A stretch of DNA of 64,000 bases from Escherichia coli (GTDB lineage: Bacteria; Pseudomonadota; Gammaproteobacteria; Enterobacterales; Enterobacteriaceae). Shown here piece by piece: positions 41,919 through 47,060 of this stretch. Position 1 is the first letter of the stretch, and the number at the start of each line of letters is the position of its first letter. The DNA lies in assembly GCF_009931435.1 (NCBI RefSeq), contig NZ_CP043414.1; one strand, 5' to 3'. The notes below the pieces were generated by a model. That model did not search any database. It was not told the origin of the DNA and saw only the letters and a list, made by a program, of their open reading frames with translations. The position numbers were made by a program, and so were the translations under genes.

Positions 41919-42911
41919 ATGGTGAAATCGACGTTATGTACAACCATTGATTTCATGAATATGTCGCAGCTAACTGAACGGACCTTTACGCCATCTGAAT
42001 CTCTCAGCAGCCTGTCACTTTTTCTTAGTCTGGCACGTGGACAGTGTCGGCCGGGTAAATTTTGGCATCGCCGTAGTTTTCGCCAGAAATTTTTGCTGCG
42101 CTCGTTGATTATGCCGCGTTTAAGCGTTGAGTGGATGAACGAACTTTCCCACTGGCCGAATCTCCATGTGTTGTTAACGCGCCAGCCGCGACTGCCTGTG
42201 CGTCTGCATCGCCCTTACCTTGCGGCGAATCTTAGCCGCAAGCAATTGCTGGAGGCGTTACGTTACCATTATGCATTGCTTCGTGCCTGCATGTCGGCAG
42301 AAGAATTCAGCTTATATTTGAATACTCCCGGGCTGCAACTGGCGAAGCTGGAAGGCAAAAACGGCGAGCAGTTCACACTTGAGCTGACCATGATGATCTC
42401 AATGGATAAAGAAGGTGACAGCACAATCCTGTTCCGCAACAGCGAAGGTATTCCTCTGGCAGAGATCACCTTTACTCTGTGTGAATACCAGGGGAAAAGA
42501 ACAATGTTTATTGGCGGGCTGCAAGGTGCGAAATGGGAAATTCCACATCAGGAAATCCAGAATGCGACGAAAGCCTGCCACGGGCTATTTCCCAAACGTC
42601 TCGTGATGGAAGCGGCCTGTCTGTTTGCCCAACGTTTGCAGGTAGAGCAGATCATTGCCGTCAGCAATGAAACACATATTTACCGCAGCCTGCGTTATCG
42701 CGATAAAGAAGGCAAGATCCATGCTGATTACAACGCGTTCTGGGAGTCGGTTGGCGGCGTATGTGATGCTGAACGCCATTACCGCCTTCCGGCACAGATA
42801 GCACGAAAAGAGATTGCCGAAATCGCCAGTAAAAAACGGGCTGAATACCGTCGGCGCTATGAGATGCTCGACGCTATTCAGCCACAAATGGCCACGATGT
42901 TTCGCGGTTAA
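41919..42911 (+). CDS. ybjX: VirK/DUF535-family protein YbjX
   Basis: 330-aa ORF; position and length match K-12 YbjX. Confidence 0.85.
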   Translation: MVKSTLCTTIDFMNMSQLTERTFTPSESLSSLSLFLSLARGQCRPGKFWHRRSFRQKFLLRSLIMPRLSVEWMNELSHWPNLHVLLTRQPRLPVRLHRPYLAANLSRKQLLEALRYHYALLRACMSAEEFSLYLNTPGLQLAKLEGKNGEQFTLELTMMISMDKEGDSTILFRNSEGIPLAEITFTLCEYQGKRTMFIGGLQGAKWEIPHQEIQNATKACHGLFPKRLVMEAACLFAQRLQVEQIIAVSNETHIYRSLRYRDKEGKIHADYNAFWESVGGVCDAERHYRLPAQIARKEIAEIASKKRAEYRRRYEMLDAIQPQMATMFRG

Positions 42912-44566
42912 TCCGCGCGACCGCGCGCCAGCCACAGCACGCGTGAGAACATTTTTTTCAGCAGCGTCGGTACGGAGTCCACACCACGACGGCCGGCCTC
43001 CATTGCCACTTCAATGGCAAGATCGGGTTTGGAAGAGCGATGGATCGCTTTCGAGATAATTTTACGCAGATTCATCGGCACATTTTCCGGGATCTGCGCC
43101 ACGCGGTGGAACACATCGGAAAATCCCTGGCGATACATAAAATGTTCCATATCCAGCGCCGGTAACGCCGTTAAATGTTCTCGTTCGGCTTCCCGATCGT
43201 TATTCAACAGGCTGCGTACCGTAGCGGCATACTTCTTCCCGGCTTCATCGCCATCGACCAGCACATGCCATTCAATCCCCATTCGACGGGCGAATTTAAC
43301 CAGTGGCTTTAGCCCGGACTGGGCAAACTCAATGACCTTGATCCCTTCGGCATCAAAATGATGTCCACACTGACGCGCCAGTTCATTGATAACCCAGGTT
43401 TCCGTTTCGCCTTCCACCAGCAGCCAGCAGCGAGCAAACAGCGATGACGGACGGTTAAAACGAATGTGGAAAGAGATACGTCGGCTATCTTCGGTACTCA
43501 AGCCACTCGGCCCCAGACGCCAGGCGGCAACGCGAGAGGACTCACGTACCAGTCGGCAAACATGCTCTACCGGCGTTAACGAAAGCAGCTCGCCAGAGTT
43601 GGTGGTGGCAATGCGCTGCAATGGCAGAAGATTCAACAGATGCCAGGCAACTGAAAGCATAATGGGGTGTAAACGCGTTTCTGGATCTTCAATCAGCAAT
43701 AATGGACGTGCGTCTTTATCCAGCCGCAATGTGCCTTTTGCCTGCAATAAAGTAGCAAACAGGCCGAGCAAAATAACCCGATACGAGCGCCCTCCAGGCC
43801 GGTCAATCATCCGGTTGATGATATCCAGATAGCGCCAGCTTCGTTGCTCATTACTGGCCCGCCGCCGCATTAAACGATATCGCGCTTGTCCGGCCCCCTG
43901 CTCAGAGAAATAATGCTCAAGCAGCTGCACCATTGCGGAAAGTCCCTGACGAATCTGTCCATCAGAGAGATTTTGCGGATGTGAGGATAATTCACGGGCG
44001 AGGAAATCGAGTTGGCGCGCGGTGACTTCCACATTAGGGACATTTGGCACCGTGCCGTTACGAATACGGCGCATAAAACGGGCATCACGCAAGCGCAGCA
44101 CCGGCATTAAACGCACCAGATGGCGTGCCTGATCGTTAATATCCTCGACATCAATCGGATGTCCGTCTTTATCGAGAAAACTGCGGAGTGTCATCACACT
44201 GCCATCTTCCGCACTCTCCCCTTCCAGGCGATAAAAAATTCGATGATAACCATCGGTGCATGGCGTCCAGCATGCTTCCAACGGTCGATAGCGGCGTACC
44301 CGATGACGGCCTGGCAGCGATTCGCGGAAGGTCAAAATAATATGCAGATGATGTTCCCGCCCGTTGATATCTCCCGGCGGAAACCAGAAATCGTCGCGCT
44401 CAAAATGGTAGAGATCTGATTCTGGCGATAGCAGCAGGGTTAAGGCGTCCAGCAAGCTGGATTTACCCCACGCGTTCTCCCCAATCAGGACGTTGTTTTG
44501 TTCCAGCATCAACGATAAACGGTTGATACCGCGAAAACCCACAATTTCAACGCGCTCAAGAATCAT
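42908..44566 (-). CDS. ybjD: OLD-family ATPase/Toprim nuclease YbjD
   Basis: 552-aa ORF with an N-terminal P-loop (GENAWGKSSLLDAL) and C-terminal Toprim-like region; the 3' end overlaps the ybjX stop by 4 nt (convergent). Confidence 0.9.
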   Translation of the reverse strand: MILERVEIVGFRGINRLSLMLEQNNVLIGENAWGKSSLLDALTLLLSPESDLYHFERDDFWFPPGDINGREHHLHIILTFRESLPGRHRVRRYRPLEACWTPCTDGYHRIFYRLEGESAEDGSVMTLRSFLDKDGHPIDVEDINDQARHLVRLMPVLRLRDARFMRRIRNGTVPNVPNVEVTARQLDFLARELSSHPQNLSDGQIRQGLSAMVQLLEHYFSEQGAGQARYRLMRRRASNEQRSWRYLDIINRMIDRPGGRSYRVILLGLFATLLQAKGTLRLDKDARPLLLIEDPETRLHPIMLSVAWHLLNLLPLQRIATTNSGELLSLTPVEHVCRLVRESSRVAAWRLGPSGLSTEDSRRISFHIRFNRPSSLFARCWLLVEGETETWVINELARQCGHHFDAEGIKVIEFAQSGLKPLVKFARRMGIEWHVLVDGDEAGKKYAATVRSLLNNDREAEREHLTALPALDMEHFMYRQGFSDVFHRVAQIPENVPMNLRKIISKAIHRSSKPDLAIEVAMEAGRRGVDSVPTLLKKMFSRVLWLARGRAD

Positions 44567-44991
44567 ATCCCCTCCAGAAATATGTGACTTATCCTTTACG
44601 CTGGCAGTATAACGGGAAAGGCCGTGCTAATACGTGATGACATCACATTTAAGCATGGCAAATGTCTGAAAAATGAGCGAATAATCGCGTTATACTCCCT
44701 CTTGCTGATAAGTCTGCAAAAACAACAAAATCAAATAATTAGCATGATAAATTATTTTTTATTACGCCTAAAGGATTAAATCTTTTGCTTGCACTACACT
44801 GTCAATCAGACAAATGACTATATGGGGCAACCCGCTGTTGCCCTAAATCAAATTTACTGGATTTATTTATCTGGTGAATGACTCGCCTTCGTTTTTAAAA
44901 TAGCCGCGCATTATTTCCGTCGTCACTTTTTTACGACGACCCTATAAAACGACCATATTTTTCACAGGGTCAATTTTTAATTGAGGTGGAT

Positions 44992-45687
44992 ATGTTCAGA
45001 AAATTAGCAGCTGAATGTTTTGGTACTTTCTGGCTTGTTTTTGGTGGCTGTGGTAGTGCCGTACTGGCCGCAGGCTTCCCGGAATTAGGCATTGGTTTTG
45101 CCGGCGTGGCGCTGGCATTCGGTTTAACCGTTCTGACGATGGCCTTCGCTGTTGGTCATATTTCTGGTGGTCATTTTAACCCGGCGGTCACTATTGGCTT
45201 ATGGGCTGGCGGACGTTTTCCGGCAAAAGAAGTCGTTGGCTACGTAATTGCCCAGGTTGTCGGCGGTATTGTTGCAGCGGCGCTGCTGTATTTAATTGCC
45301 AGTGGTAAAACGGGATTTGACGCGGCAGCCAGCGGTTTTGCTTCTAACGGTTATGGCGAGCATTCACCAGGCGGTTATTCCATGCTTTCCGCGCTGGTAG
45401 TTGAACTGGTATTGAGTGCAGGTTTCTTGCTGGTGATCCACGGCGCAACCGACAAATTCGCTCCGGCGGGTTTTGCGCCAATTGCCATTGGTCTGGCATT
45501 AACGCTGATTCACTTAATCAGTATTCCGGTGACTAACACTTCCGTTAACCCGGCGCGCAGTACTGCGGTTGCCATCTTCCAGGGCGGCTGGGCGTTAGAA
45601 CAACTGTGGTTCTTCTGGGTGGTGCCAATTGTCGGCGGCATTATCGGTGGTCTGATTTACCGGACTCTGCTGGAAAAGCGTAATTAA
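44992..45687 (+). CDS. aqpZ: Aquaporin Z
   Basis: ATG at 44992 ([29 protein letters not shown]...) gives 231 aa with two NPA motifs (HFNPAVT; SVNPARS). Confidence 0.97.
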
Positions 45688-45696
45688 TTAACGCAG

Positions 45697-45726
45697 AAGG
45701 CCTGGCGCAATGTCAGGCCTTTTTTA
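45697..45726 (+). terminator. Intrinsic terminator of aqpZ
   Basis: Hairpin aggcctg-gcgcaatgtc-aggcct followed by TTTTTT. Confidence 0.6.
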
Positions 45727-45784
45727 AATATATTGATTCATCTTCCTGTTGCGCTCCTTGATGTGTTAAGCCACATATAGTCAC

Positions 45785-46005
45785 TGGCGCAGGGGGCGGC
45801 CAATCGCCGCCGCCCCCTGCACCCCCGGGCTCTGGCGAACAAAATCGCCGCTGCGCGGTGCCCTCGACTTATCCCTTGCGGCTACCGGGTCGGGCGCGAG
45901 GTAACATCCCGGTAAAACGCGCCCTCAGCCCACATCCATGTGGGCTGCCCCGGCCTTCAGGGAACACCTCGGCGATTTTGACGCCACCAACACCGGTGCG
46001 GTTTG
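45785..46005. repeat. GC-rich intergenic element with two near-perfect palindromes (gcagggggcggc-caatc-gccgccccctgc; gcccacat-cc-atgtgggc); unclassified
   Basis: About 220 bp of GC-rich sequence with no ORF of 60 aa or more in the track, embedded in AT-rich intergenic DNA between aqpZ and ybjE. Confidence 0.4.
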
Positions 46006-46160
46006 TAATTAAAGCGCAAGAATATCTTTAAATGAAAATGAATACCCTACCGATCCTTATGCATAACATTTCCTTTTAATTGCAACTTTACTCGTCCTTC
46101 CGCTTTCAGTAGTGTGTCATCGCGCATTTCGACTTCTTTCTTTGCAAGGACTGGTTTTTC

Positions 46161-47060
46161 ATGTTTTCTGGGCTGTTAATCATTCTGGTTCCCCTGATTG
46201 TGGGTTACCTCATTCCGCTTCGCCAAAAAGCTGCATTAAAAGTTATTAATCAGCTATTAAGTTGGATGGTTTACCTCATTCTCTTTTTTATGGGTATCAG
46301 TCTGGCGTTTCTCGATAACCTCGCCAGTAACCTGTTGGCGATTCTGCATTATTCCGCCGTCAGTATTACCGTTATTTTACTGTGTAATATTGCCGCCCTG
46401 ATGTGGCTGGAGCGAGGCCTACCGTGGCGCAACCACCATCAGCAAGAAAAACTCCCGTCACGTATTGCGATGGCGCTGGAGTCCCTCAAGCTCTGCGGTG
46501 TGGTGGTGATTGGCTTTGCTATTGGCCTTAGCGGATTAGGTTTCTTACAACACGCTACGGAAGCCAGCGAATACACGTTAATTCTGCTACTTTTCCTCGT
46601 CGGTATTCAGTTGCGCAATAATGGCATGACCTTAAAGCAGATTGTCCTTAATCGCCGGGGAATGATTGTCGCTGTGGTGGTGGTGGCCAGTTCTTTAATT
46701 GGTGGTTTAATTAACGCCTTTATTCTTGATCTTCCCATCAATACCGCGCTGGCAATGGCTTCCGGTTTCGGCTGGTATTCTCTTTCCGGTATTTTATTGA
46801 CCGAATCTTTTGGTCCGGTAATCGGGAGCGCGGCGTTTTTTAATGATCTGGCCCGTGAGCTGCTTGCTATTATGTTGATCCCTGGGCTGATTCGCCGTAG
46901 CCGCTCTACTGCACTGGGCTTATGCGGTGCGACGTCGATGGATTTCACACTGCCCGTTCTTCAACGTACTGGCGGACTGGATATGGTCCCGGCGGCGATT
47001 GTTCACGGTTTTATTCTTAGCCTGTTAGTGCCGATCCTCATCGCCTTTTTCTCTGCATAA
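46161..47060 (+). CDS. lysO: Lysine exporter LysO (YbjE)
   Basis: 299-aa multi-pass membrane ORF MFSGLLIILVPLIVGYLIPLRQKAALKVINQLLSW... Confidence 0.93.
   Translation: MFSGLLIILVPLIVGYLIPLRQKAALKVINQLLSWMVYLILFFMGISLAFLDNLASNLLAILHYSAVSITVILLCNIAALMWLERGLPWRNHHQQEKLPSRIAMALESLKLCGVVVIGFAIGLSGLGFLQHATEASEYTLILLLFLVGIQLRNNGMTLKQIVLNRRGMIVAVVVVASSLIGGLINAFILDLPINTALAMASGFGWYSLSGILLTESFGPVIGSAAFFNDLARELLAIMLIPGLIRRSRSTALGLCGATSMDFTLPVLQRTGGLDMVPAAIVHGFILSLLVPILIAFFSA

Follow-up and report, generated by a model that had tools for sequence, protein, structure and literature searches.

The ybjD-aqpZ spacer and its inverted repeats

In Escherichia coli, the water channel gene aqpZ (plus strand, ATG 44992, stop 45687) is divergent from ybjD (minus strand, 42908-44566), and positions 44567-44991 are exactly the 425-nt intergenic spacer between them, with the start codon of ybjD ending at 44566. 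All positions are those of the 64-kb window analyzed, which belongs to contig NZ_CP043414.1 (assembly GCF_009931435.1). The spacer has a GC content of 37%, and the same spacer in K-12 is devoid of any annotated feature. Two inverted repeats (IR1 and IR2) had been noticed in it in an initial annotation, which regarded them as possible operators or RNA structures affecting the growth-phase regulated expression of aqpZ. Here we describe the aqpZ leader that carries both of them, in which IR2 takes part in covarying, alternative pairings and IR1 overlaps a binding site for FNR.

Both repeats were found in the sequence. IR1 consists of GGGCAAC (44825-44831), a CCGCT loop and GTTGCCC (44837-44843), within 1-2 nt of the limits first assigned to it (44824-44845), and as RNA its 7-bp stem extends to 9 bp by means of the flanking pairs G44824.U44844 and U44823.A44845. 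The stem of IR2 is 6 bp long and can form in either of two registers that overlap, pairing GTCGTC (44919-24) with GACGAC (44935-40) or CGTCGT (44918-23) with ACGACG (44933-38); the 7-nt right arm "cgacgac" given for it initially is one base too long. A third repeat, GACCCT (44938-43) with AGGGTC (44966-71), had been missed and is hereafter referred to as HP3. When 2000 dinucleotide shuffles of the spacer (426 nt) were used to estimate chance occurrence, a perfect 7-bp repeat having 5 or more G/C and a loop of 3-10 nt appeared in 0.6% of them and any 6-bp repeat having 4 or more G/C in 5%, and no shuffle reached the number of GC-rich 6-mers (four) observed from the IR1 and IR2 sites. Each of the two repeats is present as a single copy in the window, allowing for up to 3 mismatches, and on these grounds their assignment to a repeat family or mobile element, such as repetitive extragenic palindromic (REP) sequences or miniature inverted-repeat transposable elements (MITEs), was rejected.

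For comparison, species-representative genomes with AqpZ were scanned, yielding 80 loci, 42 of which keep ybjD divergent from aqpZ. These syntenic loci all belong to the Enterobacteriaceae, with spacers of 276-817 nt, and 36 of them were aligned. Besides two promoters and the Shine-Dalgarno (SD) sequence, the alignment revealed conserved blocks corresponding to ATTGCCYTAAATCAAAT, an AT-rich stretch, CTGGYGAAGGGATG and TTTTTAAAATA. The leader itself is found in one copy per E. coli genome. Published K-12 positions were transferred to the window by subtraction, the coordinate in NC_000913.3 being 961039 minus the window position and that in U00096.2 being 960262 minus the window position.

Transcription from a sigmaS-type promoter

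Kim et al. 2012 (PMC3415461, Table S1) list a transcription start site (TSS) for aqpZ at NC_000913.2 915454 on the minus strand (value 23, distance 184), with an upstream 51-mer that ends in ...CACTACACTGTCAATCA. This TSS corresponds to A44808 on the plus strand of the window and defines a 5' untranslated region (UTR) of 184 nt. Both repeats are therefore transcribed, IR1 at +18 to +36 and IR2 at +111 to +133 of the leader, in agreement with the idea that they lie in a long 5' region of aqpZ. The same table gives only one other start for aqpZ, a weaker plus-strand TSS at 44619.

The -10 element of this promoter (P1) is CTACACTG (44794-44801, plus strand), read as C-TACACT-G and located 7 nt upstream of the mapped TSS. 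Its columns in the 36 species (C31 T34 A33 Y R C31 T30 T22) yield the consensus CTAYRCTT, so that the element resembles the extended -10 of sigmaS-dependent promoters (KCTAYRCTT), with a C at -13 and the correct placement before a mapped start. Maciag et al. 2011 found that a CFT073 probe "upstream of aqpZ" is preferentially transcribed by E-sigmaS in vitro, and cite aqpZ as sigmaS-dependent. The link to growth phase made in the initial annotation fits this conserved -10. The element sits upstream of both repeats, and it explains the growth-phase regulation of aqpZ without any need for hairpins.

IR1 overlaps an FNR-bound site

The right arm of IR1 is included in an FNR binding site, TTGCCCTAAATCAA (44838-44851), centred at +37.5 from P1, which is the reverse complement of TTGATTTAGGGCAA at U00096.2 915411. 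Written as TTGCC-CTAA-ATCAA, the site coincides with the FNR consensus (TTGAT-N4-ATCAA) at 8 of 10 positions and has the correct 4-bp spacer. In the data of Myers et al. 2013 (PMC3688515), TTGATTTAGGGCAA at 915411 has a PatSer score of 13.95 with the FNR matrix and is marked "+" for its location at an FNR peak from chromatin immunoprecipitation (ChIP) followed by sequencing (Table S6), this peak being listed at 915496 (Table S5). Both tables flag the site for overlap with IHF enrichment in ChIP-chip. The same authors report a greater sigma70 occupancy under aerobic conditions (Table S2) and O2-dependence of aqpZ only in an hns/stpA mutant (Table S11). Inspection by eye revealed no match to the IHF consensus WATCAANNNNTTR. 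The FNR site of the nearby hcp operon in the Myers 2013 table (TTGATTTAGCGCAA, hcp promoter, U00096.2 913134) is one base off that of aqpZ/ybjD.

The FNR motif was detected in 38 of the 42 syntenic loci with the pattern TTG[CT][CT]-N4-[AG]TCAA, the half-sites TTG and TCAA being nearly invariant and the 4-bp spacer variable across species. No such motif precedes aqpZ in Serratia, Hafnia, Erwinia, Xenorhabdus or more distant taxa. Compared with the operators of the FNR regulon at -41.5 or -61.5, the aqpZ site lies downstream of the start, and from its position at +37.5 we infer a repressive role of the roadblock type, such that FNR, bound at +31 to +44, would presumably obstruct transcription from P1 in anaerobic cells. 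The conserved half of IR1 is the weaker half-site of this operator.

As an RNA element, IR1 (44825-44843, plus strand) has a folding energy of -13.7 kcal/mol (z -3.6). Outside Escherichia its left arm, GGGCAAC, is replaced in other genera by AAGGAAT(G/C)AC and only the right arm is conserved, a conservation that the FNR site explains at the DNA level. Across 30 species, 54% of the cells pair in the E. coli register, compared with 85% in a bulged register formed by AAGG-AAU and AUU-G-CCUU; as both arms of the bulged form are nearly invariant, RNA pairing is not separable here from conservation of the DNA. The conservation and covariation across Enterobacteriaceae proposed as a check for both repeats were found for IR2, as described below, and not for IR1. 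Within E. coli the 45-mer containing IR1 is identical in 4666 of 5418 genomes (86%), and two variants, C44843T (Nissle 1917, sampled from the one-mismatch class) and C44828T, each turn a G-C pair of IR1 into G.U. E. albertii and the E69 lineage have a weaker, bulged form. As IR1 begins 16-17 nt from the mapped 5' end, it does not qualify as a 5'-terminal stabilizer of the ompA type. Altogether, IR1 is a strong and real hairpin of the E. coli leader, specific to Escherichia and built on an FNR half-site.

In strain 24AR0357, IR1 and the FNR site are split at 44843/44844 by a 113-bp element that has GGAAGGTGCGAATAAGT as its inverted ends and shows an apparent duplication of CTAA. These ends are presumably IS5-like. 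Among 5426 E. coli genomes, 32 contain the element, one of them in as many as 31 copies, and it thus behaves as an active MITE.

Neither IR1 nor IR2 was retained as an intrinsic terminator, since no U-run follows them, the next bases being TAAATCAAA for IR1 and CCTATAAAA for IR2, and a terminator scan flagged neither of them, nor HP3.

IR2, a probable leader hairpin conserved in its pairing

IR2 (44918-44940, plus strand), referred to as HP2 in its conserved form, has a 6-bp stem in two registers, a U-rich loop and a folding energy of -7.7 kcal/mol (z -4.0). In MAFFT alignments made without structural information, its pairs are formed in 79-80% of the cells, against 21-40% in controls where the partners were shifted by 1-2 columns; a shift of 3 columns yields 53-64%, which is due to the 3-nt periodicity of GTCGTC. 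Two-sided changes were observed at 4 of 8 pairs, and the covariation score of 0.261 was reached by 3 of 500 shuffles (0.197 +/- 0.024). The stems differ among genera: GUCGUC/GACGAC in E. coli, GUCGCC/GGCGAC in E. albertii, UCAUCGU/GCGAUGA in Citrobacter, GUCGUCAU/AUGGCGAU in Enterobacter, CCUGCC/GGCAGG in Kluyvera and UCGUCAU/AUGACGG in Cedecea, with a loop that is mostly CCCUUU. This drift of the stem sequence with preserved pairing argues against a sequence-specific operator. The two repeats, far from being unconserved elements upstream of the start, are both downstream of A44808, and the pairing of IR2 is conserved.

A probable competition of an upstream strand for the HP2 5' strand

The conserved block CTGGYGAAGGGATG contains strand A (GGUGAAUGAC, 44873-44882, plus strand), the 5' edge of which is marked by the invariant T44872 and G44874. 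This block is complementary to the 5' strand and loop of HP2 (strand B, 44919-27), and the two strands change together in Enterobacter (AAGGGAUG with CAUCCCUU), RIT691 (AAGGGAAG with CUUCCCUU), Leclercia (AGGGG with CCCCU), Citrobacter R56 (GGGUGGCG with CGUCACCC) and Buttiauxella (GGAGUGACGAA with UUCGUCAUUCC); in Trabulsiella they form 10 contiguous pairs. In alignment A2 the 14-pair A:B helix is paired in 71.5% of the cells, with two-sided changes at 12 of the 14 pairs and a covariation score reached by 0 of 500 shuffles, illustrating that it covaries more strongly than HP2.

A duplex test with little dependence on the alignment, in which the energies of segments from the same species were compared with those of segments from different species among 18 genus-level representatives, gave P < 2.5e-6 for A:B, 4e-5 for HP2, 4e-5 for HP3 and 1e-4 for a weak helix that encloses HP2 and HP3, with P-values of 0.5-0.9 for three control segment pairs. 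The A:B, HP2 and HP3 helices were the top signals among the 351 window pairs scanned.

At least 3 nucleotides of B are common to A:B and HP2 in 11 of 20 species, implying that the two helices compete. In the predicted ensembles of these 20 species, A:B dominates in 8, HP2 in 10 and neither in 2. When the partner strands were blocked in turn, the A:B state was favoured over HP2 by 3.9 kcal/mol on average; in E. coli they differ by no more than 0.4 kcal/mol. In this species CCC has disappeared from the HP2 loop and GGG from strand A, and the complementarity of A and B persists in a shifted register (44873-82 with 44919-27, -9.5 kcal/mol).

The terminator scan flagged GGTGAATGACTCGCC followed by TTCGTTTTTA (44873-44896), which corresponds to strand A folded on itself with a U-run and is not conserved in other genera.

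HP3 and the search for an output

HP3 (44938-44971, plus strand), with arms GACCCU and AGGGUC around a 22-nt loop, has a folding energy of -8.1 kcal/mol and is followed by U5 (44974-78). A hairpin is found at its position in nearly all species without any conservation of sequence. The segment from a conserved TAAAAT hexamer (44896-44901) to the SD contains two tandem hairpins, at the positions of HP2 and HP3, in nearly every species, and it folds better than its shuffles (mean z -2.4), with z < -2 in 26 of 36 species.

Several candidate outputs were rejected. Sequestration or exposure of the SD, as in RNA thermometers or rpoS-like leaders, was discarded on finding the same SD accessibility as in shuffled leaders, and with it no output mechanism is visible. 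A leader peptide was discarded as well, since the E. coli ATG at 44822 aligns to ATG, ATC, ATA or TTG in other genera and, where another genus has ATG, it opens a different reading frame. A search with cmscan against Rfam 15 of both strands of 44300-46200 (E <= 10) returned only chance-level matches, none of them on the plus strand in the leader. A literature search covering small RNA (sRNA)/Hfq, UTR and anaerobic aspects returned nothing on the aqpZ leader, the original papers on aqpZ regulation being outside its reach.

GGA motifs of the CsrA type (AAGGAAU, GAAGGGAUG) are conserved in other genera and absent in E. coli. In many genera other than Escherichia the leader begins with CCUC(C), which resembles an anti-SD (loci L006, L007, L014, L025, L033 and L034; alignment A2, columns 3-10) and is predicted by RNAfold to pair with the SD of aqpZ or the conserved AAGGA; this CCUC(C) is absent in E. 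coli.

A proposed structured leader with alternative pairings

The explanation that we favour, with chances that we consider evenly balanced, is a cis-acting structured aqpZ leader with alternative pairings, overlaid on the sigmaS and FNR transcriptional signals. The aqpZ mRNA starts at A44808 from the sigmaS-type promoter, with a 184-nt leader carrying both repeats. According to this explanation, IR2 would be the form taken in E. coli by HP2, a leader hairpin kept across the Enterobacteriaceae by selection on its pairing, and strand B (44919-27) would pair alternatively with the upstream strand A (44873-82), giving rise to two competing conformations, A:B and HP2. HP3 (44938-71) and its U-rich tract would then lead into the ribosome-binding site. 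We infer that the balance between A:B and HP2 sets the stability or the translation of aqpZ mRNA, and it could be shifted by a factor bound to strand A or to UGG and UUUUUAAAAUA, motifs that are invariant and single-stranded. The positions, the TSS, the occupancy by FNR and the conserved, covarying pairing are observations, and regulation of expression by the RNA conformations and the direction of the FNR effect are proposals. Of the alternatives initially suggested for the repeats, RNA structure thus stands for IR2, supported by its compensatory pairing, and operator does not stand as it was put, for the FNR site overlaps IR1 and neither repeat is itself the dyad.

A number of results weigh against this explanation. 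RNAalifold returned zero consensus pairs on four MAFFT alignments (whole leader, A-to-C, A-to-B and HP2 alone), so that the structural claims rest on pair counts for pre-specified structures and on the duplex tests; moreover, the shuffle and permutation controls remove phylogenetic relatedness only incompletely. Folding energies did not separate the plus from the minus strand (p = 0.09), with the minus strand folding better in E. coli, and the counts of G.U versus A.C lean only mildly to the plus strand (34 vs 22); as neither is decisive, the strand was assigned from the TSS data. The probability of an unpaired SD was 0.20 in real leaders compared to 0.22 in shuffled ones (20 species, p = 0.26). 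For E. coli, the A:B register homologous to that of the other species is weak and A:B is absent from the predicted ensemble, strand A can pair with 44911-18 while HP2 is still intact, about 15% of the genomes carry a variant in the 47-mer containing IR2, and the variant sampled, A44939C, loses one pair of register 1. The supplement text of a 3'-end mapping study (Term-seq) contains no entry for aqpZ. With respect to FNR, Table S9 of Myers 2013 (PMC3688515) lists no FNR-dependent change in the expression of aqpZ/ybjD in the wild type.

A further-reaching proposal, which we put forward tentatively and regard as rather doubtful, is that the aqpZ leader of the Enterobacteriaceae is a previously undescribed RNA switch, with A:B and HP2 each kept by compensatory evolution, toggled by a water-balance signal, for example osmolarity, temperature or a small ligand, or else by way of an sRNA or RNA-binding protein. 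If so, the water channel would be regulated post-transcriptionally in addition to its control by sigmaS and FNR.

Alternative explanations

An unlikely alternative is that the two helices serve different mRNA isoforms rather than a switch in one RNA. The hexamer TAAAAT, located within UUUUUAAAAUA on the plus strand, follows the pattern TAnnAT (A34, A35 and T32 in the 36 species), and 18 bp upstream of it lies TGGTGA (44872-77), with its invariant T44872 and G44874; its spacing to the TGG is constant across genera. From this arrangement, TGGTGA-N18-TAAAAT may be considered a candidate second aqpZ promoter (P2), with a start near 44908 and a short leader devoid of strand A. The isoform proposal would place HP2 about 10 nt from the 5' end of the short leader, as a stabilizer of the ompA type, and would have A capture B in the long transcript from P1. 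It would account for the covariation of both helices; besides, the TAnnAT, the two invariant bases and the fixed 18-bp spacing resemble -10 and -35 elements and are explained by neither helix, and the AT-rich block just upstream is at the position of an UP element. On the other hand, the -35 matches at only 3 of 6 positions, a simple promoter scan found nothing, and relative to P2 the centre of the FNR site would fall near -63.5, out of the phase usual for class I. The table of Kim 2012 (PMC3415461) has no TSS near 44908, and among the Cappable-seq rows listed there is no aqpZ-sense entry here. The supplement texts of the ROSE study and of the Shigella TSS study have no entry for aqpZ.

It is also improbable, to our judgment, that the repeats are neutral by-products. 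In this view IR1 arose by chance beside a conserved FNR half-site, and short GC-rich stems in an AT-rich spacer, IR1 and perhaps also IR2 as it occurs in E. coli, would have no role of their own. This would fit the restriction of the perfect IR1 to Escherichia and its disruption in E. albertii and the E69 lineage, the two sequence-conserved arms of the bulged version in other genera, which leave pairing and DNA conservation inseparable, and the tolerance by one strain of the 113-bp insertion in IR1 and the FNR site. Against it stand the shuffle tests of repeat frequency, the identity of the IR1 45-mer in 86% of the E. coli genomes, with two polymorphisms that keep the pairing as G.U, and, for IR2, the covariation across genera.

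We consider it very unlikely that the repeats are operator palindromes in the DNA that serve as targets of dimeric regulators. In favour of this reading, several promoters are found in the spacer, a divergent regulatory region, and IR1 overlaps both the site bound by FNR in vivo and the IHF-enriched region. However, the FNR dyad is TTGCC-N4-ATCAA, the symmetry axis of which differs from that of IR1 and which covers only one of its arms, implying that IR1 itself is not the operator; the left arm gives way to AAGGAAT in other genera. The IR2 stem varies and yet stays complementary (GTCGCC/GGCGAC, TCATCG/CGATGA, CCTGCC/GGCAGG), the opposite of what a sequence-specific operator would do, and no ChIP data point to IR2.

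Just as slight are the chances of a transcription attenuator in which HP3 and its U-tract would be a leaky intrinsic terminator before the SD, controlled by the A:B and HP2 alternatives: most species have a hairpin with a trailing AA(C)UUUU(U) located 8-20 nt ahead of the SD, and the three-strand alternative pairing resembles attenuator logic, but the U-tract is short and 2-3 nt or more off the stem, with AA before the U5 of HP3, HP3 was missed by the terminator scan, the third strand, C, is separate from HP3 in most genera, so that HP2 cannot be an anti-terminator there, a conserved leader open reading frame is lacking, and the Term-seq supplement text holds no aqpZ 3' end. The operator, neutral and attenuator readings are each less likely than a structured leader.

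The regulation and role of AqpZ have long been debated, with osmotic set against growth-phase control and no clear phenotype. The TSS, the type of promoter and the FNR site were already published, and the covarying architecture of the leader appears to be undescribed; the locus is more organized than was initially supposed. The spacer is now a testable map, which comprises a sigmaS promoter, an FNR site that is deeply conserved and occupied in vivo, and covarying alternative helices in the leader RNA. If the structured leader is a switch, it would provide the missing post-transcriptional control point together with compensatory mutants to test it; if it is not, what is left are ordinary hairpins of a leader next to promoter elements that were already known.

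Other features of the region

Next to the FNR site, the AT-rich block AATTTACTGGATTTATTTATC (44852-44871) stands out by its conservation in the alignment, with IHF ChIP-chip enrichment reported at the adjacent site; a search for a covariation signal in it found none. The SD of aqpZ, GAGGUGG (44983-89), precedes the start codon ATG (44992-94) on the plus strand, with GAGGT invariant in the alignment. K-12 MG1655 has GTGGTGG instead, by a change at position 44984, whereas the window and all the other aligned Escherichia and Enterobacteriaceae have the invariant GAGGTGG. Translation of aqpZ may thus be weaker in this laboratory strain, which would bear on past conflicting reports of its phenotype.

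On the minus strand, Cappable-seq places a TSS of ybjD at U00096.2 915663(+), window position 44599, preceded by a -10 hexamer TATACT (44606-44611) that is invariant (as AGTATA) in 36 of 36 species. The weaker plus-strand TSS at 44619 abuts this hexamer, suggesting bidirectional initiation. A second minus-strand TSS, likewise from Cappable-seq and at U00096.2 915453(+), corresponds to 44809 and is back-to-back with the P1 start at 44808. The -10 hexamer assigned to it by reading the sequence, TATAGT (44817-44822, minus strand, read from 44822 to 44817), abuts IR1 and is not conserved outside Escherichia. A transcript from this antisense promoter would be a second ybjD mRNA with a 243-nt leader.

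A canonical terminator, made up of AGGCCTGGCGCAATGTCAGGCC and then TTTTTT, is located downstream of aqpZ (45695-45727). Farther on, at 45780-45830, lies a long and very GC-rich inverted repeat, CAGGGGGCGGC...GCCGCCGCCCCCTG, with the look of a REP or bacterial interspersed mosaic element (BIME). Rfam gave only weak, chance-level matches in the region 3' of aqpZ that contains this repeat.

Comparison with known RNA systems

Structured 5' UTRs with alternative pairings are represented by the rpoS leader, with its inhibitory stem, and hairpins of the 5' stabilizer type by that of ompA. Unlike in these leaders, the SD is not the sequestered strand in aqpZ, and no sRNA or protein partner of its leader is known. 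With respect to ompA in particular, IR1 is not a 5'-terminal protective hairpin, and HP2 could be one only if the putative P2 exists. On the other hand, the aqpZ leader is likewise long and enterobacterial, has conserved stem-loops before the SD and contains one strand with two mutually exclusive partners. From attenuators and riboswitches it differs in having no conserved leader open reading frame, Rfam match or recognizable aptamer, in its weak U-tract and in the lack of overlap between HP2 and HP3 in most genera. As in attenuators and riboswitch platforms, however, three consecutive strands, A, B and C, form competing helices and are followed by a hairpin and a U-tract.

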